54,214 nucleotides of DNA from a virus (Duplodnaviria > Heunggongvirae > Uroviricota > Caudoviricetes). The notes below the pieces were generated by a model. That model made no database searches. It was not told the origin of the DNA and saw only the letters and a list, made by a program, of their open reading frames with translations. The stretch's first letter is position 1, and every line of letters starts with the position of its first letter. The position numbers and the translations under genes are program-made. The stretch is taken from the IMG/VR virus record IMGVR_UViG_2513237368_000009; one strand, written 5' to 3'. Below, piece by piece: positions 5,611 to 48,725 of this stretch.

Positions 5611-5881
5611 CATTATGTTATCACGCAAGCTCTTTATCTTGCGTTTCTACATGTTTCCATGCAGATCAGACTATATCTCAACCTTCAACATTACTTGTTA
5701 AGGTTCTCCCTCTTCGTGGATATTTCGTCCGTTCTGGACTACTTTATCTAGTCGTTGCACACTTTCATATATTCCTATATGACTTGGCTCAGTCTTACCA
5801 TGTTTTTATAATTTAGGCTTGTACTGAATTAAAGGAGTTCTTTTTCAAAAACATTTCTGTTTAAGCGGCCAGTTTTACCAA
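5611..5881 (-). ncRNA. Group I self-splicing intron (271 nt, no homing endonuclease ORF) in the tape measure gene
   Basis: 5' exon ends in U (GCU), and exon GGCU pairs with intron GGCC giving the U-G splice pair (P1). P7 strands GACUA (5753-5749) and UAGUC in GAUAUAGUCUG (5673-5669). GNRA-capped stems AAACA-GAAA-UGUUU, CAUAUA-GGAA-UAUAUG and CUGCAUG-GAAA-CAUGUAG. Terminal G at 5611. Removal restores in-frame HGLEADKA|GTGLRK. Confidence 0.92.
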
Positions 5882-7651
5882 AGCCTTATCTGCTTCAAGT
5901 CCGTGATTGGCAAGTTCACCCAATGCTGCTGACGATTCTGCTAAACTAATTCCAGAGTTATGTGCTGTATCACCAACGTACTCCATACCTTTACCAATAC
6001 CAGCAAATGCAGTCGCAGACATATCGGCAGCATAAGCAAGTTCATTAACAACTTTTTTAGTATTCTTTGTCATTTTGGCAGTATTATTTGTTCTTAGATT
6101 AAAGGCATCAAGTGTTTGAGATGAAACCTTAACAACATCAGCAAAATCATCTCCAGATGCTACAGAGCCTTGTAATTCTGATTTCATAGCTCCCAATGCA
6201 GATGCGGAAGAATAACCACGCTTAACTAATTCTTGATATTGTAATGCGATATCAGCTTGAGATTTACCATATTTAACCGAATACGCTTGTCCATCTTTCT
6301 GCATTTGTGCAACGTTCTTAGTAACTTCTGAAACCTTCTCGCCACCACTTTTTAACAAATTTCCTGTAACTTTATAGGTATTTTGTAAACTCGATGCCTT
6401 TTTTGCGCCATCAACCAATACAGATCCTAGTCCCCCAACTGCCAATGCAGCGGTTGTTGCACCATTAACAAGAGAACCCGTGTCTAATTTAAGAGGAGTA
6501 GCCAAAGATTTTGTTAGACTTGGAGCGGCTGCTTTAGCTTGTGCTTTTGCATACATGAGTTTTAACTTATTCTCACTTTGTAGAACGGCTAACTCTTGTT
6601 TCTGAGTTGAACTTAGAAGTTTTTCAGCACCAGTAGACTCTGTTATTAATCTTTTCTTCGACTCTAATAATGACAATTGACGTTGAATTATTATGCTTTC
6701 TTCACGATTAGCTGTTAAAGCTCTAGTCTGCAAACTATTTTTTGCATTCTCAACACTAGATAACTTCTTGAATGCACTAGCAGATTCTTTAGCTTTTAGT
6801 TGAGTTTCAGCTAAGGCTATGTTCATCTTCTTAACACTGTCAACACCACTCTTCATACCACTAAATGCGCTATTGTTTCCACCATTTAATTTACTGAAAG
6901 TACGTTGATATGTTGTTTGTAATTCTTTCAATTTAACATTTAAGTCTTGAATACGACCAGACCAAGCAGCAATCTTACCTTGGTCATTAGAACCAGCAAC
7001 CTTTGTTTCCAATGAGCCGATTTCTTTCATAGTCTGTTTCAACTCGTTCAAAGCCTTTTTCTGATCAAGAATTAACTTTGTGTCAGACCCGTCTGCTGTA
7101 CTCTTCGTTACTCGACTAGTGAAACTATTGATATCTTCGGACTTTGTAACACTATTACTTGTACCGTTCGCAGTTTGTCTTGAAGCAGTTACTAACTTAT
7201 TGAGACTACCTTGCAGAGCTTGTTCTTCTCTAAGAGTATTCTCTTTAATTCTTTCTCCGACCTTTTTACCAGTCTGTTCAATCTCCTCAGATTGCTTCTT
7301 AAAGTTTTCAGCAACGTTAGAGGTGGCGTTATTCTTAACGTCTTTCATATTGACCTTTAAGTCAATATTCTTCTCCATTTCCTCACGTAAATGTCTAAAC
7401 TCTTTGGTTACCTGTAAAAGTTCCTTAGAAACGGAGGAAGTATCTAATTTAGGTTTAATGGTTACATTAGTTCCATCAAGGATATCCTTGATTTGTTTCC
7501 CCATTTTTCTAAGACTATTCTTATCTGCCTCAACGTTAATCTTAGCAGTGAAATCTGCCTTAAAGTTTTTCCATTTTTCTCTAAACTCACTTTCTAGTTG
7601 TGATTTAGAAGGTAGATTTACCTTTACCTTGATACCAAGTGTTTGACTCAT
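5882..7651 (-). CDS. Tail tape measure protein, exon 1
   Basis: ATG at 7651 after RBS AGGTGGTG. Coiled-coil N-terminus, then a TMP core (ELAYAADMSATAF...MEYVG...SAALGELANHGLEADKA). Unspliced reading stops at 5861. Confidence 0.9.
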
Positions 7652-8729
7652 TCTTTTCACCACCTAAGTTATTCTTGTCTTTGGGATTACTATTTCCATT
7701 CATCAATCTACTTATGTCTTTAAGTGTTTCCGACTCACTTTTCTCTTCCATATAGAATCTAGAAGTTGTATCTAACGATTCGTGATGAGCTAATTCCTTA
7801 GCAAGTTGAACGTTACCCGTTTGTCCTATCTGATTTAATCTACTCTTACGAATACAATGTGGTCTGAAATCACCAACACCAACAATTTCCCCAATCTTTC
7901 TAATGCGATTAGTAAGTGATTGTTTGCTCATTCTTCCCCATGCACCGTTTTTCCAAACATAGAACAATGCGTCACAGTCAATACCCTGTTCTTTACGCCA
8001 ATCTAGATATTCTTGCACTTTCACCTTTGTTGAACCTTCAAAGGGAATATCAACAATCTTTCCACGTTTTTCCCTAACGTCTTTAAAAATCATTTCATCC
8101 ATATTTAGATTTGATAAGCTCAACTGATGTAATGCACCTATTCGACATGCACTATCAAAAGCAATGTTCCAAATAATTTCGTCTTGGTAATCATATTTAC
8201 TTAATGACGTCTTGGGTTTGCTTAATTCTTTCTTTATCAAATCAATCTCTGGCTGATGTAGGAAATAAACTGCAATTTTCTTCTCTTCCTGAGCATTTTT
8301 TATTCTGTCCAACTTGCCACTAAAAGGATGTGATTGTATCAATCTACGTTTCGTAGCCCAAACATAGAAACTTGACACAGCACTAAGTTTTGTATTTATA
8401 ACTTTCTTTCCATTCCCACATTCATCTTCAAGAAACAACATGTATGCTTCCATAATGTCCAACATATCTTCTTCAAGAATGTCTTCATTAAGTAGATAGA
8501 AATTATCCCAATTCTCTTCGATATAACACATGAAAATATTCATATATGATTGATATACCTTATACGTAGTTTCACGAACATCTCGATTTTGAGCTTTCTT
8601 ACTGTTTAAATATTTGTTATATATTTTTATGTTATCTGGATTTATCTTCTCCATACGTTCTTTTGTCGTATACTTTTTGATCTTACGTTTACCTGTTGTT
8701 TGATACTTTAATCCTTCTTTGTGTTCCAT
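7605..8729 (-). CDS. Tyrosine recombinase (integrase/Xer family)
   Basis: Catalytic motifs SACRIGAL (R), RPHCIRKS (HxxR), LAHHES (H), TTSRFY (Y). Position next to the TMP resembles SPbeta yomM. Confidence 0.9.
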   Translation of the reverse strand: MEHKEGLKYQTTGKRKIKKYTTKERMEKINPDNIKIYNKYLNSKKAQNRDVRETTYKVYQSYMNIFMCYIEENWDNFYLLNEDILEEDMLDIMEAYMLFLEDECGNGKKVINTKLSAVSSFYVWATKRRLIQSHPFSGKLDRIKNAQEEKKIAVYFLHQPEIDLIKKELSKPKTSLSKYDYQDEIIWNIAFDSACRIGALHQLSLSNLNMDEMIFKDVREKRGKIVDIPFEGSTKVKVQEYLDWRKEQGIDCDALFYVWKNGAWGRMSKQSLTNRIRKIGEIVGVGDFRPHCIRKSRLNQIGQTGNVQLAKELAHHESLDTTSRFYMEEKSESETLKDISRLMNGNSNPKDKNNLGGEKNESNTWYQGKGKSTF

Positions 8730-19936: not shown

Positions 19937-20959
19937 TTAAAATTTAGCTATTATCTTTACAGATAAACTTTGATACTGATCATTAACTTTAGCAAGAATG
20001 TTCATCATGTTTCCTATATAGCGTGAGTCGTCTATAACACTAAACTGGAACATATCTTCATCACGTTCTAGTATATTTATAGGCAAGGTTTGAACGCTCT
20101 CTACGTCCCATTCTGACACTTTGAGAGGGGTCTTACTTCCGTCTTCATTCACTTGAACTACCGAGTAACTGTAAGACCTTCCTAATCTAGCCTTTTGCTC
20201 ACCAACTATATTAATAGTAGGAATTGCAATATTACTACTATCAGAAGGGTTCTCTTCTTTTTCACCATTGAAACCCCAATAGTTTGCTATTCCTAGCTCA
20301 ATATTGTCTAATTCTGGGTTTAATGTATCTTCATCTAATAGCAAGTTGATAAGTCCAATTCTTGAAATAGAATCGGCAAACTCAACCTTGTAAACTTTGC
20401 TACTTATGAAAAATCTGTCTCCTATAGTTATCTGACTTGTCTCGGAGTTATTTTTAACATATAGCATCATTTTACCATTGATTAAAGATAGGTTGTTACC
20501 CGTAAAGGAAACACCTAATGTATACAATGTCTGGTTTTGGACGTAAGCGCCCCAACCGTTACCATTGTTTGAAACTTTTTTAGTCTCTTTGTCTACTATC
20601 CATTTAATCGAGTGATTTACGTGTTTAATCTTTAATTGCTGATGTGTAGGAATTGTCTTAAATTCACCAGTGAAGATCAGCCATTGTTCACTACGCCAGT
20701 TTACATAAGAACCGACTCCACAATTAACACTATTGGGTAAGATAATATATTTATCATCAGATAAATCTTTATTATTACTTTGTGATTGATCCTGAAATAT
20801 AGCTTGTGTCGGAATATTATCTATAATGCAATCTTCTTTATCTAGTGCATTAGCAAAGTATTTATTAAACTCTCTCGTCTTATCGTGCATGTTTCTATCA
20901 TATCGAGTAGCGCCGACTCTCTTCATATGATTTCTAAAACTATCTGAAAAACTACTCAT
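19937..20959 (-). CDS. Putative head-closure protein with a C-terminal Ig-like domain
   Basis: 340 aa, neck position, beta-rich C-terminus (INIVGE...YSYSV). Confidence 0.45.
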   Translation of the reverse strand: MSSFSDSFRNHMKRVGATRYDRNMHDKTREFNKYFANALDKEDCIIDNIPTQAIFQDQSQSNNKDLSDDKYIILPNSVNCGVGSYVNWRSEQWLIFTGEFKTIPTHQQLKIKHVNHSIKWIVDKETKKVSNNGNGWGAYVQNQTLYTLGVSFTGNNLSLINGKMMLYVKNNSETSQITIGDRFFISSKVYKVEFADSISRIGLINLLLDEDTLNPELDNIELGIANYWGFNGEKEENPSDSSNIAIPTINIVGEQKARLGRSYSYSVVQVNEDGSKTPLKVSEWDVESVQTLPINILERDEDMFQFSVIDDSRYIGNMMNILAKVNDQYQSLSVKIIAKF

Positions 20960-21390
20960 TATGCCATATCTCCATAAAGGTCTGATTGTGCATATTCATA
21001 ATCATTTAGACCTTCTTGAATTTCGGTTCTTAATTGGCGCTCCATTTTACTCAATTTATCTAAATATTGATAACCTTGAACGGCTTGATAATCTCTATCA
21101 CCGATAGCCTTTCTCGTCATTTCTTCCGAGTTTTTAGTTCTCATTACCCATTCAAGTTTCATTGCTTTTGCCAAATAGGCAATTTCAAATCTACTAAGTG
21201 TGACATTGAACTGTTTAGCTTCTTCATCAGTATCATACACATCTTTATGATAGTTGATAAACATGACACGACCAGCATCGAGATATCCATAAAGCACTTC
21301 CTCTAATTCGTCATCATCAATAGCACTGAAATCGTAACTATCAATGGTATTTAAGAAAACCTTATAAACCTCTGAATATTTAGTTGCCAT
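20959..21390 (-). CDS. Putative head-tail adaptor
   Basis: 143 aa beginning MATKYSEVYKVFL; neck position as in SPbeta-like phages. Confidence 0.5.
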   Translation of the reverse strand: MATKYSEVYKVFLNTIDSYDFSAIDDDELEEVLYGYLDAGRVMFINYHKDVYDTDEEAKQFNVTLSRFEIAYLAKAMKLEWVMRTKNSEEMTRKAIGDRDYQAVQGYQYLDKLSKMERQLRTEIQEGLNDYEYAQSDLYGDMA

Positions 21391-37387: not shown

Positions 37388-37401
37388 ATGATAAAAATTT
37401 G

Positions 37402-37428
37402 AGACTATCTGAATAAGATGGTCTTTTT
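37402..37428 (+). terminator. Intrinsic terminator of the par operon
   Basis: AGACTATCT-GAATA-AGATGGTCT followed by a T-run. Confidence 0.7.
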
Positions 37429-37449
37429 CTTTTTGCTCTAAATTTTAAT

Positions 37450-37960
37450 TCATTATATAATACATTATGATTATGAAATGTTAATATATTTAGTAATTCA
37501 TTTTGAATATAAAGTGTATTATAATTATATAATATATTTTAACATAAGTATGCACGCTGATTTTACTTTATCCTAGTCTCTTCTGAAAGATCATGTGACG
37601 AGTGTTTTACTTAATGTATTATAATTACATAATCTATTTAAACTACTTAATTATAATGTATTACTAAATATGTTATAAAATCAAAATGTATTATAAATAC
37701 ATAATGTAAGTTGATTAGGTAATGTATTTTGTAATGCTAATCTGTTATAAATTATATTTTGTAATGTTAATTCATTATGTAATTCATTATAATTATGTAA
37801 TTAAATAGTATGCACACGTTATAATGATAATGTTAATGTATTATGTAATGTACTTGTATTATGTATTTATAATGAGTATTAAAATAAATTATATAATGTA
37901 CTATATAATGAATTAGCTAATGATAAACAATTGGGTAAATGCAATGGTTTATATAATGAA
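37450..37960. repeat. Very AT-rich tract dense in TAATGT/ACATTA/TATATAATG motifs (candidate centromere)
   Basis: Many half-site copies of the palindrome found upstream of parA; no ORF. Confidence 0.55.
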
Positions 37961-38939
37961 TTAAGGCGATTAGATTGCTATTATAGTGCTATTGTTGAAT
38001 AAGGCAACGGAGTTGCTGTAAATGGCGAGTGTGAAAATGGATAATGTAAGCGAGTTGATATGCTTGATTTAAGGGTCAAAAAGTATGCACGGTAAAATAG
38101 CTCGATTTGACCTTGTTTAACCAATATTGTTTAATTTGAGGAGTTTGATAGATTAAGGGTAGAAATGAGCATAAATTGAGGGCAAATAAAATTACAATAA
38201 AATATTTGTAAAATGTGAATAAAGAATAAATTGGATCACTTTGGCAGCTAGATTAATTGGCAGCAAAATTGTTATATAGTTTTAACTGTTATTAATATTG
38301 TTGAAAATCGACATTTACATTTACATAAATTAGATTAAAGGAAATCATAACGCAATTGTTATGATTTTTTTGTTGTGCTGAATTGATCTATTGAGTAATG
38401 CTGGAATGAAATTTGAGGGAGAGTTTGAGGAAGATTGAGAGTGGAATGGAAGGTGATTATAGAATATTTGGCAGCAGATTTGATTAGGCTGAATAAATTA
38501 TGGAGATAGTGAAGATAAATTATGGGGCAGCTTTGAGTAAAACAGGGGGCATATGGAACGAATATTTGCATATATTGGTGAATATTTGAGTGTAGGTTAG
38601 GAATATTGAGGGTAAATTTGGGGAAGATTAAGAGTGAAATGAGGGTAAGTTGGGTCGAAAAATGGTGTGTGGGTGTAGCTACTGATTTCAAAACGTTCAA
38701 AAAATTTCCATTCATTCGAGTAAAATAGCCCCCGACTTGTTATAAAGAATAATAGTTCTTAATAATCGCATAGCATATATTTAAAATTATTTATTTTTAT
38801 TTTAATAGGGGCGGTTAGTGTAAAAATTTTACTCAATCATGTCACACAATTTTTTTCTTGATATTCCATTTCAAAAATTTAAAATCGTTTTGAAAAATTT
38901 CAATAGTGTTTATCTCTATCAGCTTACATAAATTTATCA

Positions 38940-39230
38940 CTATACTTTCATATCAAAAAATCACACAATTAAACACGATATCATAAACATATCACAACAA
39001 TATCACAATGATATAATTACTTATGCACACTATCACACTTCACAACTTAATTAACTATCACACTATCATACTCAATCAGCATTCAATCACTCAATCACAC
39101 AATCAATCACACAATCAATCACACTAACACATTCACACACGACACACACAATCAATATATCAGCATTCAATCATACGACACAATCAATCACACACACAAA
39201 AACATACAATATATACACACGCAAAAACAT
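38940..39230 (+). repeat. CA-rich, G-poor low-complexity tandem repeats (ACACAATCAATC / ATCAGCATTCAATCA units)
   Basis: Directly visible, e.g. CACACAATCAATCACACAATCAATCACAC near 39096-39124. Confidence 0.8.
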
Positions 39231-39358
39231 AGCTTAATACTATTCATATCAACGACCGCACTCACTTTTTATTTTTCATTTTTGATTTTTCCTTCTATTA
39301 AAGCAACGTTAAACATAACTTGCGATATTCATATTATTAATTCAATTTAATTTAACAC

Positions 39359-39731
39359 TTGACAGTTTAACATTATTCGACTATACTTGTGTTTGTTGAT
39401 TGATATCAATAAGCAAGAACGATAACAATCAATATCAACAATCTAATATCAATTTAATTTAATACTTGACAACTTAATAACAAACGATTATACTTGTGTT
39501 GTTGATAAGTAAGAACGTGATTACTTGATAGATAACCGACTAAGTGCGGTATTATCAGTTAAACGTACAAGCCTATCAATAAAGAGTAAAAAGAGTTTAA
39601 AAAAGTAGTTGACAAGTTATAATGAACCTGATATACTTGCAACATGGCAATCAGGTAACAAGGTTTTATAGATTGCCAGTTTCAAAAAAGTTTAAAAAAG
39701 TTCTTGACAAAAAAGATATCAAGTTTATAAT
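39359..39731 (+). promoter_or_regulatory. Four tandem near-consensus sigmaA promoters
   Basis: TTGACA-N17-TATACT at 39359, 39466 and 39609; TTGACA-N16-TATAAT at 39704; AT-rich UP-like elements before each. Confidence 0.88.
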
Positions 39732-39739
39732 TGGTATCA

Positions 39740-40255
39740 TAGAGTTAAGGAAACGGCGGGACAACGCCTTACCAATCAGATACACGGACTTGACTACAAT
39801 GTATATCGACTTTAATAGTATTCTATACGACAGTTAGTTAAATAAATGTATCTAGTCCTTTGAAAAATGAATAACCTTGATAGCATAGCAAGCTATCATA
39901 ACACTTGAATACCTAATGAATTGTTAAGTTAAGATTGCGAGTCTTAATAATCAAACAAGTATATTTTTAAGCACTTGAATACAACAAGGCACTTGCTTAA
40001 ACAGTATGGAGATAAATAAAGCATACAATATACAACGGGCGAAAAACTACTTGCCTTTAATCTTACGATTGAATAAAATAGGTCAACGCAACAACGATAT
40101 AAGCGATTATATCAGAGCGTACTTGATTGACGACTTAGGCAGCACCAAGTATAAAAATATGTCAAAGTTTTAAAGTTTTAAAGCAGTGTTCAAATAGACT
40201 AGCAACGTTTTAATGGTTAGTCTATTTTATAGAATGCTTTAAATAAGCATACCAA
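39740..40255 (+). ncRNA. Candidate large structured RNA / structured leader
   Basis: ORF-poor segment after the promoters with many stems, e.g. GATATAA-GCGA-TTATATC, AAATAGACTA/TAGTCTATTT, TTTAAAGCA/TGCTTTAAA, TTTAAGCA/TGCTTAAA, TGATAGC/GCTATCA. Confidence 0.55.
39855..39873 (+). promoter_or_regulatory. rrn boxA-like antitermination motif
   Basis: GTCCTTTGAAAAATGAATA resembles the Firmicutes rRNA-leader boxA (YTTTGAAAACT). Confidence 0.45.
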
Positions 40256-40274
40256 TAATAAGGGGTGTATTAAA

Positions 40275-40412
40275 ATGACAACAATCAAAAATAGTAGTTC
40301 CGTAACTAAGGCAACCAAAGGCAATACAACTTACTACCTAAGTAATCGTGACGAACAACGTGGTATTGATATTCAATTGGATATGCAAGGCTATACAGTA
40401 ATCGCACTTTAA
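40275..40412 (+). CDS. Small hypothetical protein (45 aa, not in the ORF track)
   Basis: AAGGGGTG RBS; MTTIKNSSSVTKATKGNTTYYLSNRDEQRGIDIQLDMQGYTVIAL. Confidence 0.6.
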   Translation: MTTIKNSSSVTKATKGNTTYYLSNRDEQRGIDIQLDMQGYTVIAL

Positions 40413-40450
40413 TAGTAGTAATCTTGCAATATATAAAGGTGGTTTTAATA

Positions 40451-40651
40451 ATGGGTAAAGTAGTCGCTGTAATTGGTTTAACTAATAATCATAGTATTAA
40501 TATACTTGATATTGATACAGACAACGAAAAAGTAATATATCGTATCAACAATGGTAAAACGCACGTTGTTAAATTGTATCTTACTAATAACCCGTATTTC
40601 ATGTGTGGGACAACTAGAATAAGGTTATGTACTGCTATGAAAGTTGGTTAA
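40451..40651 (+). CDS. Hypothetical early protein
   Basis: AAGGTGG RBS, ATG at 40451. Confidence 0.6.
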   Translation: MGKVVAVIGLTNNHSINILDIDTDNEKVIYRINNGKTHVVKLYLTNNPYFMCGTTRIRLCTAMKVG

Positions 40652-40652
40652 A

Positions 40653-40697
40653 AGCGTGGCATGGTTGCTATGTTAGTGTTCGATTCACTAACACGCT
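40653..40697 (+). ncRNA. tRNA-like element E1
   Basis: AGCGTG / GCA-TGGT-TGC / TTAGTG-TTCGATT-CACTAA / CACGCT. Confidence 0.75.
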
Positions 40698-40736
40698 ATT
40701 GTTACATATATTATTCAAAAAATGGAGGTAGTTATC

Positions 40737-40910
40737 ATGTATCAAGTGTACGATAACTTTGGTGGTTATCCAGAGCAGTTAAGTAAGAACAGACTTATTG
40801 AGCTTGCTAAAAGTGTTTGCCCGTTTAGTTTGATTAGTTCGACTTTTGAAGCAATCAACGAATTGCAACAAGCAGGGTATTATGTATCAAGAATTGACTT
40901 ATTGTATTAG
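40737..40910 (+). CDS. Hypothetical early protein
   Basis: GGAGG RBS; MYQVYDNFGGYPE... Confidence 0.65.
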   Translation: MYQVYDNFGGYPEQLSKNRLIELAKSVCPFSLISSTFEAINELQQAGYYVSRIDLLY

Positions 40911-40944
40911 ACAAAAATCAAAAACAAAAAGGTGGAATTTTATT

Positions 40945-41310
40945 ATGAAAAAGACAAGTTTAGTAGCAACTGTAGCTGTAGCGTTAGGCGTGTTTGGTGG
41001 TCAACAATTTATCATTTCTAAGCAAGCGGGCGATATCAATTCAGCTAACCAAAGCGTTGCAACAATGAAACAGAAAAACTATGAATTTGCAACTGGTAAA
41101 CGTGCATTAAAACTCGAAAATGGTCAAACTATTAAGACAGATAAATTTGAAATTCAATACGTTGCTAACGGTAAAAAGTGGAGTGCCGTAATTGTGCCAA
41201 CAGATAAAAACTCACGTTTATTAGGTCAACAAGGCGAAGGGGCAAAGGGTCTTGAATTAGATAGTGTATCATACCTTGATACTGGTTTAACTACTATTGT
41301 TGATAAATAG
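40945..41310 (+). CDS. Putative exported/membrane-anchored protein
   Basis: MKKTSLVATVAVALGVFGG signal-like N-terminus. Confidence 0.6.
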   Translation: MKKTSLVATVAVALGVFGGQQFIISKQAGDINSANQSVATMKQKNYEFATGKRALKLENGQTIKTDKFEIQYVANGKKWSAVIVPTDKNSRLLGQQGEGAKGLELDSVSYLDTGLTTIVDK

Positions 41311-41364
41311 TAGTAATATTAACATTTTTAATGTAGGGTAAAAAAGAATTTTTTGTCAATAAAA

Positions 41365-41410
41365 AACATGGCATGGTTGCATTTTGGTGGATTCGATTTC
41401 CACCTATGTT
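41365..41410 (+). ncRNA. tRNA-like element E2
   Basis: AACATG / GCA-TGGT-TGC / GGTGGA-TTCGATT-TCCACC / TATGTT. Confidence 0.75.
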
Positions 41411-41446
41411 GTTGATACATAAAAAAATAAAAAGGGGCGTATTAAT

Positions 41447-42142
41447 ATGACAAAGTACATAAATAAAAAAGGACAAGTTTTATCTATCGAGCCAGACGAC
41501 TGCTCAGAAAATCCCGTACGTGATTGGGATATGTTAGGTACTTACTATACTTTTGAAGGTAGGGCATACTCACCTAGCGAACACAATTACAGTGACGCTA
41601 TGGAATTTTTGGGCAGCATTATCGGTGACGAATTAGTTGAAAAATTACATGTAAGAAATAATAATACAGAAGATTTTTTGAATGACGTTTTTGAACGTGC
41701 GAATAAGTTAGGTTATATCATGTTTCCGATTAGTAAGTTCGAGCATAGCAATGTAGTTTATTCATTAGGTACGGCAAACGGGTGGGATTGTGGTACGGTT
41801 GGCGTAGCTTTTGTGGCAAAAGAAACAGTTTGTGCAGAATATGGCGTTAAAAAAGTCACTACTAAAGTCCGTAAATTAGTTAAACAACGTTTTGAGGGCG
41901 AACTGGAAACCTATACACAATGGTGTAATGGAGATGTTTATGGTTTTACAGTTACCGACAGTAAAGGCGAATTAGTCGATAGTTGCAGTGGGTTTTATGG
42001 TTTGTGTCAAGACACAGATTTGGACGAGGCAGTAAGATCGGGCTTACTGGAAACAGTTGCAGAATTAACCAATTGTGGTAAACCGAGTGACTGGAAAGAG
42101 GCAATAGTTGACCGTGTAATTTATAAAGAGAAAATTGCATAA
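41447..42142 (+). CDS. Conserved phage/mobile-element hypothetical protein
   Basis: Motifs FEHS...WDCGTVG...YTQWCNGDVYGF...DSCSGFYG; function unknown. Confidence 0.7.
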   Translation: MTKYINKKGQVLSIEPDDCSENPVRDWDMLGTYYTFEGRAYSPSEHNYSDAMEFLGSIIGDELVEKLHVRNNNTEDFLNDVFERANKLGYIMFPISKFEHSNVVYSLGTANGWDCGTVGVAFVAKETVCAEYGVKKVTTKVRKLVKQRFEGELETYTQWCNGDVYGFTVTDSKGELVDSCSGFYGLCQDTDLDEAVRSGLLETVAELTNCGKPSDWKEAIVDRVIYKEKIA

Positions 42143-42188
42143 TGTAGGCAGAAAAAAGAATTTTTTATAAAACAGAGGAGATAATATC

Positions 42189-42410
42189 ATGTTATTAAAA
42201 TTTAATTTTGGGGATTATGATTTAATTCAGGTATCAGAAAACGAGTTCAAAAAAGTGTTCCATCAGAATTGCCAAGGCAAGACTAAAAAATATTATTTTG
42301 ATGACTCAGATATTGAGACAATCAAATATCTTGATGAACAAATCAATGGAGACAATCCTGAAACAGCAGAAAGTGCGCTGTTCTATTTAGAAGATGTTTT
42401 TCTACATTAA
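42189..42410 (+). CDS. Hypothetical protein, paralog of 49509-49730
   Basis: Shared NFGDYDLIQVxxNEFKKVFH. Confidence 0.7.
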   Translation: MLLKFNFGDYDLIQVSENEFKKVFHQNCQGKTKKYYFDDSDIETIKYLDEQINGDNPETAESALFYLEDVFLH

Positions 42411-42448
42411 ATTGAGTTAGCGAGAAAAAGAATTTTTAGTCAAAAATA

Positions 42449-42493
42449 AACACGATATGGTTATTTAATGTAAGTTCGATTCTTACACGTGTT
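42449..42493 (+). ncRNA. tRNA-like element E3
   Basis: AACACG / ATA-TGGT-TAT / TGTAAG-TTCGATT-CTTACA / CGTGTT. Confidence 0.75.
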
Positions 42494-42530
42494 GTTGATA
42501 CATAAAATAAATTTTAGGGGTTGTATTATT

Positions 42531-43076
42531 ATGGAAAAAAGCAAAGATATATTGGAGAGAATTGCGGACAAGTCGTGGGGTCACGGTTTATGTTTTGAAT
42601 TAGGCGGAAAATTTAATACAGAACGTGAGTTAGAAAAAATTCTTGATTCATACGGAATTGATAAGGATAACGCAGAAACATTAATGAACGAGGGTATCGG
42701 TTATGCCTATATTTACAGTGAAGAAATTGAGGGCGTACAAGTTGAAAATGAAAATGAATTGTGGGTAGTCAACAATGAGTTATCTACTTTTGACGGATTG
42801 TGCGATAAGTTATACAAGGACAAAAAAGGGAATTATATATTAGGTTTTGCATATGATACTTTTGATATACGTTTTGCGATTGATATTTTAACCGCAACAA
42901 TTGGCGTAATCAATTTTGATAATGAGGGCAATGCAACATATGAATGGAAATACACTATGCAAAATGAAGATATAGAAATGCTGCAAAGAATTATTGAAGA
43001 GAATGATATGAGCCTTGATGATAGTATTAATATTACAAGAAATAATTTAAGTAAGTTACCATATCCAGTAGCGTAA
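42531..43076 (+). CDS. Hypothetical acidic early protein
   Basis: AGGGG RBS, ATG at 42531. Confidence 0.65.
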   Translation: MEKSKDILERIADKSWGHGLCFELGGKFNTERELEKILDSYGIDKDNAETLMNEGIGYAYIYSEEIEGVQVENENELWVVNNELSTFDGLCDKLYKDKKGNYILGFAYDTFDIRFAIDILTATIGVINFDNEGNATYEWKYTMQNEDIEMLQRIIEENDMSLDDSINITRNNLSKLPYPVA

Positions 43077-43092
43077 AAAAGAAATTTTGGTT

Positions 43093-43150
43093 AGCATAAT
43101 ATGGTTGTGGCAAAAAATTTTTGCTAGTGAGTTCGATTCTCACTTGTGTT
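43093..43150 (+). ncRNA. tRNA-like element E4 (with a third arm)
   Basis: AGCATA / ATA-TGGT-TGT / GGCAAAA-AAT-TTTTGCT / AGTGAG-TTCGATT-CTCACT / TGTGTT. Confidence 0.75.
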
Positions 43151-43186
43151 GTTGATTCAAAAATAAAACAAGGGTAGGTACATATT

Positions 43187-43618
43187 ATGAACGTAGAAAA
43201 GTTAATCGAAACGCTTAACAATCAAACAGTTACACTTGTTTCCAATATGGAATTTGAAAATAAACTTGTTGAGGTAACAACGTTGGAAAAAAGATTAGCA
43301 ACAACTTGTGAAGAGGGTTGTTTAATCAGTGGCAAGGAATTAAATAGTCGTCCAATGGATTCAATGATGGAAACATTTTTGGCTGATAATGGTATGGCTA
43401 TCTTTGATAACGATGCTGTGTATTGTGAGTCAATCGAAGAAATTTATGAGGTAGGTAAGAATTTAAAGGATTGTATTAGCGAATTAAGTCGAGGGTATAT
43501 TTCACAATTAGGTTGTCAATTGACTGGATTAGAAGAAGAGGAATATTGGGAAACACTTTTTGGTAGCTATCCTAATGCAAGAATTAATGAAGATTATGAA
43601 GTAGTTATCAACGATTAG
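43187..43618 (+). CDS. Hypothetical acidic early protein
   Basis: 143-aa ORF with RBS. Confidence 0.65.
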   Translation: MNVEKLIETLNNQTVTLVSNMEFENKLVEVTTLEKRLATTCEEGCLISGKELNSRPMDSMMETFLADNGMAIFDNDAVYCESIEEIYEVGKNLKDCISELSRGYISQLGCQLTGLEEEEYWETLFGSYPNARINEDYEVVIND

Positions 43619-43653
43619 TGTAATAAGAAAAGAATTTTTAGGAGGAATTAATT

Positions 43654-44121
43654 ATGACAATGACTTACGAACAATTAGCAGAAAAATTAAAGGTGGCAAA
43701 AGATTTTAGAGAGAGTTTTGTCGAATGGACGAAAGATTTCTATGAAGCAGAATACTATTACAATCATTGCACTAAGTATGCAAAGAAAAATAATATTGCT
43801 ATTGAGGAAGATGCTGTTAAACAACATATGTTTGACAAATTGTATGAAATTGCAGATAGCAGAGGTAATGAATATGAAAGATGTTTAATTGCGGATATGG
43901 CGTGGGACTTATGTGGGGATAATCAACCTATCAACTATGGTATTGGTACTGTTGAAGATATTTTTGATAATATTGAAATATTTTTGGAAGCCAATAAGAA
44001 AGTTGCTGAAATTGCTAGAAAAGAGACAAATGTTGATGAAGATACATTTAGTGATGAGAGTAATGATTATCTAACTGATAATTGGAGTGAAATGTACGAT
44101 ATGTTAAAAAATAATAAGTAA
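43654..44121 (+). CDS. Hypothetical early protein
   Basis: AGGAGG RBS, 155 aa. Confidence 0.65.
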   Translation: MTMTYEQLAEKLKVAKDFRESFVEWTKDFYEAEYYYNHCTKYAKKNNIAIEEDAVKQHMFDKLYEIADSRGNEYERCLIADMAWDLCGDNQPINYGIGTVEDIFDNIEIFLEANKKVAEIARKETNVDEDTFSDESNDYLTDNWSEMYDMLKNNK

Positions 44122-44153
44122 AATAAAAAAGAATTTTTAGGAGGAAAAATTAT

Positions 44154-44477
44154 ATGAGTAGAGAAACAACTAAGCTAGAAAGAATTTTAAATTTCATTGA
44201 GGGAAATGGAGAAATAATAACTGGTGTTAAATGCACTAGTTTAAACAAGAATGGTTTTAATGATATGGAAGGTATTCAATGGATAGTCGGTATCAAAATT
44301 CTTACAATCAAAGAATATAGAAATGTTCAATTTAGTTGGTTCACTAATTCAACATATATTGACGACTACTATTTAGATAACAACGACAACCCTACTAACA
44401 AAGAGTTCAAAGATTCTGTTATGAAAAATATAGAAGAGCTTTTGATCAATACGTTAGCAATGAAAAAATGTAGTTAG
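44154..44477 (+). CDS. Hypothetical early protein
   Basis: AGGAGG RBS, 107 aa. Confidence 0.65.
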   Translation: MSRETTKLERILNFIEGNGEIITGVKCTSLNKNGFNDMEGIQWIVGIKILTIKEYRNVQFSWFTNSTYIDDYYLDNNDNPTNKEFKDSVMKNIEELLINTLAMKKCS

Positions 44478-44504
44478 CTAAAAAAGAATTTTTACATGAT
44501 TAAA

Positions 44505-44549
44505 AGCGTGGCATGGTTGCTATGTTGGTGTCCGATTCACTAACACGCT
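44505..44549 (+). ncRNA. tRNA-like element E5 (near-duplicate of E1)
   Basis: AGCGTG / GCA-TGGT-TGC / TTGGTG-TCCGATT-CACTAA / CACGCT. Confidence 0.75.
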
Positions 44550-44586
44550 ATTGTTACATAAAATAAAATAAGGGTGGTACATAATT

Positions 44587-45117
44587 ATGAGTTATGAAAC
44601 AGTAAAAAGTTTTTCAGCAAAAGAAAAAGAATTAATAATTAGAGGTACTTATTCATCAAGTAACGTGACTGACGCATATGGACGGAGAGTAACTGACAAA
44701 TTTGAGAAAAAATATAAGGATTTACAAGATTTCAAAGATAGTTTGCTAGGTTTTGTTGATGGATATTTTGATGGCACACTTAGATTTTCCAATTCATCTA
44801 CTTTTGTTAAACGTGTTCGTATGTTACAACAAGAAAATCTGATTGAAAGTCGCAAAGATAAATATGGACTTGTATGGCATTATGTAGTTCGTAATGAAAA
44901 AGCGTATAACATTATGGTGGGTAAAGAAAAAATCAAAGTACCTACTTATTCAATCGTAGGTAATCAGAATGTTGTGTTAAGAAAAGTGAAATCTAAAATC
45001 AGATTAGAGTCCATGAGAAAACCGACCGTGTTTTATGAAAAAGCAGAAGTAGAAAGAATTTTTGACCTTGTCGAAGATTGGGTCGGTAGTTACGGACTAA
45101 GAATAATTGAAAACTAA
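44587..45117 (+). CDS. Hypothetical basic early protein
   Basis: 176-aa ORF, AGGGTGG RBS. Confidence 0.65.
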   Translation: MSYETVKSFSAKEKELIIRGTYSSSNVTDAYGRRVTDKFEKKYKDLQDFKDSLLGFVDGYFDGTLRFSNSSTFVKRVRMLQQENLIESRKDKYGLVWHYVVRNEKAYNIMVGKEKIKVPTYSIVGNQNVVLRKVKSKIRLESMRKPTVFYEKAEVERIFDLVEDWVGSYGLRIIEN

Positions 45118-45207
45118 AAAGAATTTTTGGTCAAAAATAAATATTGATTAATAGTAGTAATATCAACATTATATGTTAGCAAGAAAAAGAATTTTTAGTC
45201 AATTGGC

Positions 45208-45251
45208 AACGTGGCATGGTGCAAAATATGAGTTCGATTCTCATACACGTT
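45208..45251 (+). ncRNA. tRNA-like element E6
   Basis: AACGTG / GCA-TGG-TGC / TATGAG-TTCGATT-CTCATA / CACGTT. Confidence 0.75.
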
Positions 45252-45302
45252 CTTGTTACATGGACAATGTAAACAAAAAATAAATTTTTGGAGGAATTAA
45301 TT

Positions 45303-45722
45303 ATGCCAACAACAAAATCAATTGCAATTAGGAAAGATGTTTATAATTCATTAATGATTTTAGTAGGAAAGATGAGAAAGCTGAATAATTCAGCAGTAGA
45401 ATTTGAAGACAAAGAGGGGCAAGTAATTACGGAGAACATTGAGATTCCAGAAGTTGACGCAAGTTTGCGACTTGTATTAATACCAGAGAATTGTTCGATT
45501 AGATATGATACCTCAATGGGAGATTCAATTGAAGAGAATTTACCACTTTCAGATAAAAAGTTGTCTGAGGTTGGTTTGTCTATTGCAGTTGTTGCAGAAG
45601 TTGACGGTTGTGATGATGAAGAGGTGGACATTGATACGACAAAATCAATTGGACAACAAGCAGACCAAATTATGAGATATTACGGACAACGTAAACGTGA
45701 AGGGTTTTTCAAAATGGTTTAG
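45303..45722 (+). CDS. Hypothetical early protein
   Basis: GGAGG RBS, ATG at 45303. Confidence 0.65.
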   Translation: MPTTKSIAIRKDVYNSLMILVGKMRKLNNSAVEFEDKEGQVITENIEIPEVDASLRLVLIPENCSIRYDTSMGDSIEENLPLSDKKLSEVGLSIAVVAEVDGCDDEEVDIDTTKSIGQQADQIMRYYGQRKREGFFKMV

Positions 45723-45784
45723 TCAATTTTTGAAGGATTTTTTCATTCAAAGTACATAAAAAAAATAAATGGAGGTTGCATATT

Positions 45785-46300
45785 ATGACGTGGGAAGAAG
45801 AAATTTACAAGGCAAGCGAGGGTAAAGTTACACCTGAAAATTACAATGATTTTAATGTAGCATTCTACCAAGCCTTTATAGACCAAGTCGCAAGTGAATA
45901 TCCTAGTGAGGGTAATGTTGGCGATTCAGAGACGGGCGTAGTTAAAGTGTGGGGCATGGAATTACATGTAGAATTTAACTTTGAGTATGTTGATGAAAAT
46001 GAAGGCATTGAAACACAACCTACCGATATTGCTTTAGTAGAGGAGGAAGTAACAAAAGTAAAATATCTAGGTATAAAAGAAGACTTAGAACACGGTTGTT
46101 ATATGGTACGTTTCAAAAAGGAGGATCAAGTCAAAGAAGTATTTTTCCAAGATAATGAAGATTTGGTTCAATCAGTTTACGGTGAAGATTGGATAAACCA
46201 CTTAGAAGATAGTGATGACGATTTGTTAGATATGGCAGATAAGCATTTTGAATTAGAAAAGAATTTTTGGTTTGACTGTGTAGCAGAAGTCGTAAAATAA
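45785..46300 (+). CDS. Very acidic hypothetical protein (possible DNA mimic)
   Basis: GGAGG RBS; high Asp/Glu content. Confidence 0.6.
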   Translation: MTWEEEIYKASEGKVTPENYNDFNVAFYQAFIDQVASEYPSEGNVGDSETGVVKVWGMELHVEFNFEYVDENEGIETQPTDIALVEEEVTKVKYLGIKEDLEHGCYMVRFKKEDQVKEVFFQDNEDLVQSVYGEDWINHLEDSDDDLLDMADKHFELEKNFWFDCVAEVVK

Positions 46301-46336
46301 AGAATTTTTAGTCAAAAATAAATGGAGGTAAATATC

Positions 46337-46657
46337 ATGAGAATATTTGAGAATTTTAAGGAGTTAGAAGAAAGTAACAAGAGTTTGGCACAAGAATTAC
46401 TGGAAAATTTTGGAGAAGGAGATTGGCAACAAGATCAATTGTATGTTCACGATAGTCTTTCTGAATTTGCTGAATATGAACTGACTGACGGTTGGTATGA
46501 AAATAATAATCTAGATAGAGATTACAATGGAGCGCCCGATTTGATGGATTATATTGATACAAAATCATTGGGTAGAGATTTAAGTGAACGTTGGGATATT
46601 AGCAGCCACTTTCTATCTGAAAATGGTTCGGTCGTTGAAACTGGTTTTGGTTGGTAG
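46337..46657 (+). CDS. ardA: ArdA-like antirestriction protein (C-terminal domain-like)
   Basis: Acidic; DLMDYIDTKSLGRDL resembles the ArdA YxDYExxGRDL motif. Confidence 0.5.
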   Translation: MRIFENFKELEESNKSLAQELLENFGEGDWQQDQLYVHDSLSEFAEYELTDGWYENNNLDRDYNGAPDLMDYIDTKSLGRDLSERWDISSHFLSENGSVVETGFGW

Positions 46658-46702
46658 AAAAGAATTTTTAGTCAAAAAATAAAATAAAAGGTGGAATTAA
46701 TT

Positions 46703-47080
46703 ATGACAAAAGCAGTAATGGGATATGAAAAGGAAAATGGTTTAGTTGTTGCAAAATTTAAAAAGTCGTTCTTTATGAAAATTGAAGGTGTAGTAAAAGA
46801 AAGTATCACAGTACACGATACAAAGATTGAAATTATAGATATTACAGAACAGAAAATTTCTGATAGAAGATATGAAGAGGCATTGGACGATTACGGCTTG
46901 TATTGTTGTTATAACGATCCAAAAGAAGTTATGGAAACAGCAATATCTGGCGAAGATTCCCCCGAAGATTCACCGTATATTTGGTGTAGTGCTTTAATCA
47001 AAAGAAATGATGAATATTCAATCGTAACTTTTGACTTTTTTGACGGAGCAGGATTAACAGTTTTTACGAGTCAAGATTAA
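46703..47080 (+). CDS. Hypothetical early protein
   Basis: AAGGTGG RBS. Confidence 0.6.
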   Translation: MTKAVMGYEKENGLVVAKFKKSFFMKIEGVVKESITVHDTKIEIIDITEQKISDRRYEEALDDYGLYCCYNDPKEVMETAISGEDSPEDSPYIWCSALIKRNDEYSIVTFDFFDGAGLTVFTSQD

Positions 47081-47097
47081 CAGTATAAAGAATTTTT

Positions 47098-47158
47098 AGC
47101 ATAACCATGGTTGGTGCAAAAAGAAATTTTTGTTAGTGGTTCGATTCCGCTATATGTT
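47098..47158 (+). ncRNA. tRNA-like element E7 (with a third arm)
   Basis: AGCATA / ACCA-TGGT-TGGT / GCAAAAA-GAAA-TTTTTGT / TAGTGG-TTCGATT-CCGCTA / TATGTT. Confidence 0.75.
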
Positions 47159-47189
47159 TTTATTACATAAAAATTAGGAGGTACATATT

Positions 47190-47564
47190 ATGAAAAAAGA
47201 AAAATTACTTGAATCAGTAAAATTGATTAAAAAATTAACAAATATTATTCAAGACACAAACTCCGAACAATACTCTATTAATTTAGTTAAGAAAACTAGA
47301 CAAGAATTGTCGCATAGACTTGACCGTCTAGCAATAAAAGAATTAATGAAAGAGGCTGACGTTGATAAGAAACTATACAATTCAAGAAAATTTTACGACT
47401 ATCTTTTCCATGAATTAGAGGAAGCAAATTATCATTATCCCGCAGAAGCATTATTGAATTTGGATAAGGATGTTGTGGATGGTTATGAAATAAATGCAAA
47501 TTGCAAAGACTACATTTATTTTGTAAAGACAATTGCAAAAATAGTTTTAATAGGAGGGGAATAA
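47190..47564 (+). CDS. Hypothetical early protein
   Basis: AGGAGG RBS, 124 aa. Confidence 0.65.
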   Translation: MKKEKLLESVKLIKKLTNIIQDTNSEQYSINLVKKTRQELSHRLDRLAIKELMKEADVDKKLYNSRKFYDYLFHELEEANYHYPAEALLNLDKDVVDGYEINANCKDYIYFVKTIAKIVLIGGE

Positions 47565-47567
47565 TAT

Positions 47568-47957
47568 ATGTATTTGTTAGTTGAAAAAACAATTCATGGT
47601 GTAAACGGAAGTTATGCTGAGCTTGACAGTGTTGGTTGTTGGTACGTTCAAAAAGAAAAAATACCTAACGGTACTGACGGACAGACAATGTACAAAATTG
47701 ATCTTAGCAGACACAATTTAAAAGACTTGTCTGATGATACTCCAGTATATTCAGGTGTAAACGATTATGAAGAATTTACGGGAACACCAGAATATGAGGA
47801 TAAACAATCACTAATGGAAAAGGTAAAAGAATTTTTGGTGAGAAATAATCTTGAAGTCAATGAATATAACGTATACCTCTTTGCTGAATTAGCATTGGTG
47901 GTATGCAATGTACAGGACATTGAGAAATTTATAGACAACGGATTGAAATTACAGTAA
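47568..47957 (+). CDS. Hypothetical early protein
   Basis: GGAGGGG RBS, 129 aa. Confidence 0.65.
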   Translation: MYLLVEKTIHGVNGSYAELDSVGCWYVQKEKIPNGTDGQTMYKIDLSRHNLKDLSDDTPVYSGVNDYEEFTGTPEYEDKQSLMEKVKEFLVRNNLEVNEYNVYLFAELALVVCNVQDIEKFIDNGLKLQ

Positions 47958-47976
47958 AAATTAGGAGGAATTAATT

Positions 47977-48420
47977 ATGGGAAGTTTTAGTTGGAACAAG
48001 GCAGATAGTCTTACACGTATCAAGAATGTATATTATGGTGCGCCCTTTAAGTTATTAATACCAAAGGAATTTGGTGGTGGTTTTATCAGAGACCACTACC
48101 AAGATTATGGTATTATCACAGACCATAAAACTGGTTTAGATTATGATATGTATGAATTACTTGCCTTTTGGAATAAAGACCAATTATCAATGGGTGGTGA
48201 ATTAAGGTTTAATGGAGATTTTCCTAAACTAAAATCTGTAGATGAATACACAGACAGAAACAGAGGTTTAGGTATTGATATTGGTTGTTATGACAATCAG
48301 ATCGACAAACTCAAATATCCATTAAAATTAGTGAGTGTCGGCTTTAAAGGTTCTTACGAAGATTTGGATAAACCTAGCTACGGAGATCCCAAACAAGGAT
48401 TTTATCCTGTTGAAAGATAG
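47977..48420 (+). CDS. Conserved phage hypothetical protein (MGSFSW... type)
   Basis: AGGAGG RBS, 147 aa. Confidence 0.7.
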   Translation: MGSFSWNKADSLTRIKNVYYGAPFKLLIPKEFGGGFIRDHYQDYGIITDHKTGLDYDMYELLAFWNKDQLSMGGELRFNGDFPKLKSVDEYTDRNRGLGIDIGCYDNQIDKLKYPLKLVSVGFKGSYEDLDKPSYGDPKQGFYPVER

Positions 48421-48476
48421 TATCTGTTTAATGAAAAAGAATTTTTAGTTAAGTTATAGATAGGGTGGTAATTTTT

Positions 48477-48725
48477 ATGAAAGAATATCGTGAAAATTAT
48501 TTGAGAATAATCTTGCCTGATAAGATCAAAAATACGAGAAAAGTGTTGTTTAGACATGAAGAAAATTTTCTGCCTATACACGTTCTTGTTGATCTCGACA
48601 ACCCAAGCGATACACGAGTTGGAGAACATATTAAAGACTTGTTGACTACTGAAGAGTGGGACGATGTTTTAAAAGATATCAGAGAAAAAGAAAAAACTGA
48701 ACAGATAGAAAAAGAAAAAAATTAA
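48477..48725 (+). CDS. Hypothetical early protein
   Basis: AGGGTGG RBS. Confidence 0.55.
   Translation: MKEYRENYLRIILPDKIKNTRKVLFRHEENFLPIHVLVDLDNPSDTRVGEHIKDLLTTEEWDDVLKDIREKEKTEQIEKEKN

Follow-up and report, generated by a model that had tools for sequence, protein, structure and literature searches.

What is specified by the ~500-nucleotide (nt) segment at 39740-40255 of the 54,214-nt stretch of viral DNA analyzed here (the window)? The window is the start of a 126,646-bp contig (C61) in a host draft genome (G000, 2.65 Mb), and it appears to belong to a ~127-kb SPbeta-like temperate phage-plasmid of a lactic acid bacterium. An earlier note, made from the letters of the window alone, had described the segment as free of open reading frames, dense in stems, and a candidate for a large structured RNA of a known or a new family. 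The reading favored here, with a probability of roughly 55%, is that 39740-40270 is a long non-coding structured 5' leader of the early operon, with a loading site for Nus factors.

One independent homolog was found, in a phage-plasmid (G203:C3) of a congeneric host; an IMG/VR record (G201) is of the same lineage. Identity to G203:C3 is ~75% over the leader and 74-79% over flanking genes. The homolog leader is interrupted by an insertion sequence (IS), and with this excised, the two leaders align over their full extent. The covariation reported below was determined from these two sequences, in one MAFFT alignment with the IS removed from the homolog.

Open frames do exist in or near the segment, one of 55 amino acids (40006-40173, + strand, inside the central domain described below) and one of 71 amino acids (39622-39837). 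The claim that the segment is free of frames does not hold to the letter, but neither frame is a conserved gene. In the homolog, codon 5 of the 55-codon frame is a stop, and two runs of gaps, 4 and 11 nt long (15 alignment columns), disrupt the frame. Its mismatches are distributed over the three codon positions as 18/11/15, compared with 38/25/87 in a neighboring gene of 231 amino acids. No PHROG or Pfam family is matched by this frame, and there is no tblastn match in phages. Against a background of 40-70% identity, three blocks are almost invariant between the homologs (38/39 positions at 40000-40038, 18/18 at 40140-40157 and 44/45 at 39796-39841). The lone difference in the 39-nt block 40000-40038 toggles a stop codon in both potentially open sense frames, which argues that the conservation of the block is not protein-coding. 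Judged by openness, third-position bias and family membership, the 55-codon frame fails as a gene, and 39740-40255 is not protein-coding. The ratio of C to G is 0.90 in the leader and 0.55 in the early coding region.

Minimum-energy folding of 39740-40255 gives -108.2 kcal/mol on the + strand (z = -2.9, with 0/100 dinucleotide shuffles as good), compared with z = -1.1 on the - strand. The RNAalifold consensus of the whole leader contains 95 pairs; 19 are compensatory, 10 carry one-sided changes that are still paired, and none is broken. Refolded column shuffles, with columns permuted within conservation classes, have 6.1 +/- 2.6 compensatory pairs, and at most 14 in 150 shuffles. The consensus energy is -72.6, vs. 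-31.6 +/- 5.1 in the column shuffles; a slightly narrower slice has energy z scores of -7.9 (+ strand) and -3.1 (- strand). In a test free of consensus bias, the window's own minimum-energy structure was checked against the homolog. Of 51 pairs with a homolog substitution, 28 stay paired; 13 of these are changed on both sides, compared with 1-7 in slid controls. Changes on one side that still allow pairing number 15 on the + strand and 5 on the - strand, which is the G-U signature of a + strand RNA. Five domains refold alike in both homologs when each is folded alone; the stems at 39928-48, 40037-56, 40127-65 and 40234-50 are not conserved, and 40167-84 is deleted in the homolog. These comparisons show a conserved, non-coding RNA structure of ~490 nt to be predicted from the + strand, with covariation above that of column shuffles, and the structured RNA proposed in the earlier note is thereby borne out. 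From 5' to 3', its parts are as follows:

39755-39768, + strand: 5'-proximal hairpin of 4 G+C base pairs, invariant in the homolog
39778-39853, + strand: domain D1, a three-tier hairpin with an almost invariant 45-nt interior
39857-39874, + strand: boxA-like 18-mer, predicted single-stranded
39878-39898, + strand: domain D2, a 6-7-bp hairpin that begins 3 nt after the boxA-like 18-mer, loop core conserved
39903-40150, + strand: central multi-branch domain of ~250 nt, closed by stacked long-range helices
39903-07/40146-50, 39912-16/40135-39 and, third, ~39921-29/40121-33, + strand: the closing helices
39928-48, + strand: variable hairpin inside the central domain
39966-40001 and 40004-26, + strand: hairpins inside the central domain
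40000-40038, + strand: the 39-nt block, inside the central domain
40037-40085, + strand: variable part of the central domain
40086-40120, + strand: part of the central domain with a GNRA-capped hairpin
40151-40191, + strand: A/U-rich linker, partly deleted in the homolog
40192-40227, + strand: domain D5, a 10-12-bp hairpin with a short U-run, terminator-like but weak

Being invariant, the first hairpin (39755-39768) is uninformative on structure. The 7-bp closing helix of D1 (39778-84/39847-53) has four compensatory pairs and one G-U with none broken, and the same D1 shape is obtained from both homologs folded separately. The D2 helix (39878-83/39893-98) has two compensatory pairs and one G-U, and its loop-closing pair is lost in the homolog. 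In the central domain, 39912-16/40135-39 has three compensatory pairs across 220 nt, and the third closing helix has two, in one register. When the central segments are folded separately for each homolog, the same long-range closing helices are recovered with pair probabilities of 0.9-0.99. The closed ~250-nt domain is on these grounds a predicted new conserved RNA fold. Further two compensatory pairs are found in the helix 39966-73/39994-40001 inside it. The D5 helix (40192-201/40218-27) has two compensatory pairs and two G-U pairs with none broken, with fold energies of -12.2 and -14.5 kcal/mol. D5 is A/U-rich, with a 12-nt loop and 4 U in the window and 3 U in the homolog, and it is not called by a terminator scan.

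The stems cited in the earlier note, counted here as six, are all present in the window; in the homolog four are conserved, a fifth is partly conserved and one is not. The hairpins 39878-39898 and 39966-40001 are kept, each with two compensatory pairs, and at 40177-40243 the inner 10-bp helix is kept (two compensatory, two G-U) and the outer helix roughly so. The nested structure 40082-40131 has held up in part. Its 4-bp surrounding helix is kept, but the outermost helix is lost, and where the window has the GCGA-capped 7-bp hairpin (40096-40113), the homolog has an unrelated 5-bp GAAA-capped stem within the same 4-bp helix. The stem 39929-39947 is not conserved, and is where the IS has inserted in the homolog. 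The best-supported parts are ones that had been overlooked, namely D1, the boxA-like 18-mer and the long-range closing helices.

The whole window was scanned with the 4227 models of Rfam 15 at gathering thresholds, and 39300-40700 with permissive filters at E values up to 10. The leader has no match at gathering thresholds, and only chance-level matches (E 0.5-9) are seen in 39300-40700. Neither GOLLD (RF01998) nor ROOL (RF03087, an ornate fold of ~580 nt) is matched in either scan, and the same is true of raiA, OLE, HEARO, T-box, riboswitches and 6S. As no Rfam 15 family is matched, the RNA appears not to be GOLLD, ROOL or raiA, which had been raised as possible families.

The earlier placement of the segment behind the strongest promoters agrees with what is found upstream, where four tandem predicted + strand promoters are close to the sigma-A consensus (scored against the sigma-70 consensus). 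Downstream, the leader is limited on its 3' side by a ribosome-binding site and gene:

39359-39387, + strand: promoter P1, 11/12
39466-39494, + strand: promoter P2, 11/12
39609-39637, + strand: promoter P3, 11/12
39704-39731, + strand: promoter P4, 12/12
40261-40412, + strand: ribosome-binding site and first real early gene (frame 40275-40412, 45 amino acids, phrog_11464, E 9.5e-14)

Transcription from P4 would start at ~39736-39740, at the start of the flagged segment. The homolog likewise has four promoters. An A-tract running into the -35 element is common to P3, P4 and the ribosomal RNA (rrn) promoters of the congeneric host G203. P4 also has short BLAST matches in other genomes, but the idea that these might be rrn promoters was rejected. 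A promoter-like site on the - strand (40133-40106) is not kept by the homolog. Between P3 and the A-tract of P4 there is a 7-bp hairpin (GGCAATC ... GATTGCC, 39640-39680). P1 and P2 form a 107-bp tandem duplication (73% identity) with TGTGTT(T)GTTGAT after each copy, and this sequence is also found at the end of the tRNA-like elements of the early operon.

The identity of the 18-mer at 39857-39874 rests on comparison with rrn operons. The six rrn operons of G203 share a leader motif ~105-122 nt before 16S, the core of which recurs ~76 nt after 16S (in the 16S-23S spacer), just behind a small hairpin. We take these placements to be the sites of the leader and spacer boxA, in the Firmicute form of this motif. 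In rrn operons, the place before boxA that corresponds to that of D1 is occupied by boxB. The window 18-mer is identical to the G203 rrn leader boxA at 16/18 positions, and is the lone match in the 54-kb window at up to three mismatches (it has two; 0.24 expected by chance). The boxA consensus of E. coli is GYTCTTTAANA (PMC5725501). A degenerate pattern covering the phage and rrn forms was searched for in the 2.4-2.65 Mb genomes. In G203 it finds only the six rrn leaders and the phage leader, and in G000 only two chromosomal sites (C66 and C80, rrn context not inspected) and the phage leader, with no matches for the reversed control in either genome. As the pattern was drawn from these same sequences, this shows specificity rather than discovery. 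The 18-mer is on the transcribed strand, ~120 nt after P4, and is unpaired in both single-sequence and consensus folds. It is flanked at a distance of 3 nt on each side by covarying hairpins, D1 ending upstream and D2 beginning downstream, and it occupies the same place in the homolog. Rho (RNA-binding domain, 427-amino-acid frame) and NusB (142-amino-acid frame) are encoded by the host. With a host-like boxA, on the sense strand, predicted single-stranded, and with host factors present, 39857-39874 has the predicted properties of an rrn-type antitermination site. The phage-plasmid appears to have copied the host's own rrn boxA into its early-operon leader.

No N-like arginine-rich protein was identified, although no systematic search for one was made. 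The exact host boxA 17-mer occurs in IMG/VR only in coding sequence or in rrn leaders at prophage edges, and in no other phage leader. A leader-trailer helix to distal parts of the operon was not found.

With no convincing terminator before the gene at 40275, and with a boxA of the host rrn type, a leader and antitermination region is a more economical explanation than a free-standing non-coding RNA. Host RNA polymerase would start at the four tandem strong promoters. By the time the P4 transcript is ~120 nt long, the boxA copy would emerge from it in single-stranded form, between two conserved hairpins. This boxA would recruit host NusB/S10, along with NusA and NusG, and the elongation complex would gain resistance to Rho and to hairpin terminators. 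The complex would then read through the 530-nt untranslated leader and the weak terminator-like hairpin 40192-40227, and go on to transcribe >10 kb of early operon, in which tRNA-like elements lie between small genes. The ~250-nt domain may have a function in cis, through processing of the RNA, stability of its 5' end or control during transcription. Transcription of the segment, the loading of Nus factors, the read-through and whatever the large domain does are inferred.

Several points weigh against a leader of this kind. The distance of boxA from the start site, ~120 nt, exceeds that in rrn operons, and the homolog boxA differs from that of the host at 4/18 positions. A boxA needs only tens of nucleotides, and the conservation of a closed 250-nt domain is not explained by a leader function. 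The covariation is based on two sequences and a single MAFFT alignment, and the column-shuffle null is of the mononucleotide class, in which dinucleotides are not kept. The interruption of the homolog leader by an IS fits a role in the lytic cycle, but is no proof of one.

This IS is an IS3-family element of 1,180 bp at ~20061-21240 of G203:C3, with a second copy 123.5 kb on. It has frames of 87 and 255 amino acids, terminal inverted repeats and a 3-bp GAT target duplication. The target is the position of the window hairpin 39928-39948, and the insertion splits the homolog's promoters and boxA from the remainder of the leader and the early genes. An intact leader would therefore be dispensable for plasmid maintenance, and the insertion may lock the related element into the plasmid state. 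The insertion also explains why the Illumina contig G201 ends there. Extra sequence at the G201 contig ends was considered as an expanded RNA stem, but this was rejected, as it consists of the inverted repeats of the IS3-family element.

The unexplained size and closure of 39903-40150 keep alive the rival that survives best, a free-standing or trans-acting RNA, which is nonetheless considered unlikely. It would be ~490 nt long, made from P1-P4, ended or cut at 40192-40227, abundant early, and would act in trans as a sponge, antisense RNA or protein decoy. boxA would then serve, as it does in rRNA, the production and folding of a long untranslated structured RNA. A closed, covarying multi-branch domain of ~250 nt does exceed the needs of an antitermination site, and a free-standing RNA would also accommodate the invariant single-stranded blocks. 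The conserved 3'-side hairpin and U-run at 40192-40227 could supply its 3' end; however, this hairpin has the A/U-rich stem, 12-nt loop and 3 U in the homolog noted above, goes uncalled as a terminator, and the RNA directly adjoins a ribosome-binding site and a real gene. A possible target was found for the invariant 40140-40156, which could pair without a mismatch with codons 4-9 (nt +11 to +27 of the message) of the host gene for ATP synthase subunit b (atpF, Pfam ATP-synt_B; G000:C97:104685-104701), and this complementarity holds in both host-phage pairs. However, a 17-mer match somewhere in the host genome is also obtained with 43% of shuffled leaders, and the block is partly occupied by a closing helix. 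The atpF pairing is therefore rated a lead only, and as a 17-mer match by itself it is not significant.

An extension of this idea, for which the odds are decidedly poorer, is that the phage-plasmid mimics the logic of an rrn operon as a whole, with rrn-like promoters, a host boxA and tRNA-like punctuation, and that its first product would belong to a new class of folded RNAs of ~0.5 kb that act on the host in their own right, beyond a leader function. Pairing with the start of the atpF message through 40140-40156 would be a candidate action for such an RNA.

Comparably improbable is a cis-regulatory switch or attenuator, in which alternative pairings of a 10-nt repeat (39903, 39972) would decide termination at 40192-40227 in response to a ligand, a protein or host state. 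The repeat is conserved, and two or three partners are available to it: 39906-12 is paired with 40186-92 in the single-sequence fold, whereas in the consensus 39903-07 is paired with 40146-50. Covariation lends no support to the alternative pairing, however. A conserved hairpin with a U-run does lie just upstream of the first gene, as an attenuator would need, but as a terminator it is weak, and no riboswitch, T-box or other leader family is matched.

The conservation could also be that of DNA, if the palindromes and conserved blocks were bound by proteins, either as operators of the phage repressor or in replication, partition or packaging. The leader has ParA and a repeat-rich non-coding zone of 2 kb beside it, a lysogen must silence four strong promoters, and inverted repeats make hairpins on both strands, the - strand consensus z still being -3.1. 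However, covariation between sites ~220-240 nt apart is not expected of such elements, G-U-compatible one-sided changes are three times as frequent on the + strand as on the - strand, the stem loops are long and asymmetric, unlike protein-binding palindromes, and operators would be expected at the promoters rather than 200-500 nt downstream. DNA-level elements are thus judged very unlikely. Least of all can the segment be decayed coding sequence or chance stems in an A+T-rich spacer, as although a 55-codon frame is present and A+T-rich DNA forms many weak hairpins, this is already largely refuted by the lack of third-position bias, the stop and frameshifts in the homolog, the absence of a family, the 38/39 and 18/18 blocks within DNA that is 70-75% identical overall, and covariation above column shuffles.

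The structured leader itself appears to have a very narrow known distribution, two lineages of one genus. A blastn search with 'distant' settings against phages and plasmids found no leader homolog, and searches of 200 and 400 genomes of the family found only short promoter-like matches in addition to G203. At the genus level the region is found in G203 only. IMG/VR, searched through neighboring proteins and a 21-mer, gave only G201. GTDB contigs had no match to a protein profile, and to an 18-mer only chance matches in unrelated phyla; JGI metagenomes had two chance matches to a 19-mer, in otherwise dissimilar sequences. Further relatives are present in the protein database, where one protein of 95% identity is encoded in 20 contigs, one of 71% on a 114-kb ENA contig, and several others have 45-47%.

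Relatives of the window proteins found by protein database search carry the name Liquorilactobacillus hordei. The large terminase has 42-45% identity to Lysinibacillus phage LC76P1 and the SPbeta/phi3T group, and a portal, a helicase, a DnaD-like loader and ParA-like genes are also encoded in the window. In the complete genome of the congeneric host G203, the related element is a separate contig, in which two copies of the region are found 123.5 kb apart, the signature of an over-assembled circle. This circle, together with the terminase, portal, ParA-like and DnaD-like genes, is the basis for the assignment as an SPbeta-like phage-plasmid. The window is laid out as follows:

1-32 kb, - strand: virion genes
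32-37.4 kb: replication and partition genes
~37.4-40.27 kb: gene-poor zone
from 40275, + strand: small early genes

The first of the early genes, the phrog_11464 gene, has relatives with 55-61% identity in Listeria (P100/A511-like), Lactobacillus plantarum (Semele, Iacchus, Dionysus) and Carnobacterium myophages, where they are located in early or terminal regions. It is absent from the G203 homolog, in which the leader continues into the next gene. The gene looks like a mobile immediate-early gene common to unrelated phage families. A leader comparable to that of the window was looked for upstream of the first-gene homolog in Lactobacillus phage Semele and is absent.

Further into the early operon (40650-48500), an intergenic module recurs in which 5-6 bp of stem and a TTCGATT loop, resembling the T-arm of a tRNA, are stacked on an acceptor-like stem. 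The module is preceded by a AAAGAATTTTT-type motif, and ARAGORN calls no tRNA. These modules look like tRNA-like minihelices that punctuate the polycistron. Examples are:

40653-40699: repeated intergenic module
41387-41404: repeated intergenic module
42470-42487: repeated intergenic module
43127-43144: repeated intergenic module
44505-44551: repeated intergenic module
45228-45245: repeated intergenic module
47140 onward: repeated intergenic module

On the other side of the promoters, 37400-39300 is a 2-kb gene-free zone beside ParA. Its repeats are of three sorts, with iteron-like A+T-rich 12-mers at 37440-37900, G-rich sequence lacking C at ~38100-38700, and CA-rich sequence lacking G, made of CACAATCAATCAC-type repeats, at 38950-39230. 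Within this zone, the homolog keeps only 38662-38808 (76%). The repeats are candidate origin, partition or packaging sites, and a 118-amino-acid frame on the - strand (38359-38715) is probably spurious. The sole Rfam match of the whole window is a group I intron (RF00028, 70 bits) at 5647-5889 on the - strand. It sits between the long - strand frames 5861-7663 and 1-5628, and apparently splits a very large tail or structural gene.

The closest described analog of the leader would be the early region of phage T7 (host promoters A1-A3, boxA, RNase III site R0.3, then the anti-restriction gene 0.3). Both have tandem strong promoters of the host type with a host-type boxA shortly downstream, followed by a structured leader and a long polycistronic early operon of small takeover and anti-defence genes that is cut at RNA structures. 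However, the host here is a Firmicute and boxA has the Firmicute form, and the element is a temperate SPbeta-like phage-plasmid rather than a lytic podovirus. The leader here also holds a closed multi-branch domain of ~250 nt, the intergenic structures are tRNA-like minihelices rather than RNase III hairpins, and the sequences are unrelated. According to PMC3709561 (citing Savalia 2010), host transcription in T7 is antiterminated through a working boxA behind early promoters A0-A3. Lambda nut sites and the rrn leader work on this principle too. For Firmicute phages, early messages of Bacillus phage SP82 bear conserved processing structures, as mentioned in PMC4838370 with reference to Panganiban and Whiteley (1983).

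The leader resembles that of rrn operons (tandem P1/P2, boxB-boxA-boxC, Nus complex) in its A-tract promoters, its 16/18 boxA match, a hairpin directly before boxA as in the host 16S-23S spacer, the long stretch of structured RNA that follows untranslated, and the presence of tRNA-like elements within the operon. It differs in having no similarity outside boxA and no detected leader-trailer helix, and its product is a protein message. Antitermination by phages through boxA is textbook knowledge for lambda and has been shown for T7, both of them in E. coli. As in lambda nutL and nutR, boxA here lies close to the beginning of an early operon and has a small, conserved hairpin (D2) a few nt behind it, and processive antitermination is the likely logic. 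In contrast to lambda nut, the D2 loop is of 7-9 nt and is not a GNRA-like pentaloop, and the two homologs have no first gene in common. The put RNAs of HK022 differ in having no boxA. GOLLD and ROOL are also conserved multi-helix RNAs of several hundred nt, from phages of lactic acid bacteria and near tRNA-like elements; in comparison, the RNA here is smaller, mostly a chain of local hairpins with one closed domain, and is a leader between promoters and a gene.

No description of a boxA in a Firmicute phage leader, or of this element, was found in the searchable literature, which is not proof of absence. If the leader reading is correct, phages would have turned repeatedly, in different phyla, to hijacking the machinery that transcribes rRNA, and the leader would offer a compact 18-nt system, with a natural variant in the homolog, for Nus-factor antitermination in the Lactobacillaceae, where it has been little explored. 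In practical terms, the cassette of promoters and leader could be used to drive strong expression that is proof against terminators in lactic acid bacteria. Among known systems, the kind is that of a phage early leader with a host-type boxA; new are the carrier, a temperate phage-plasmid of a Firmicute, the near-copy of the host rrn boxA, and the large conserved fold attached to it.

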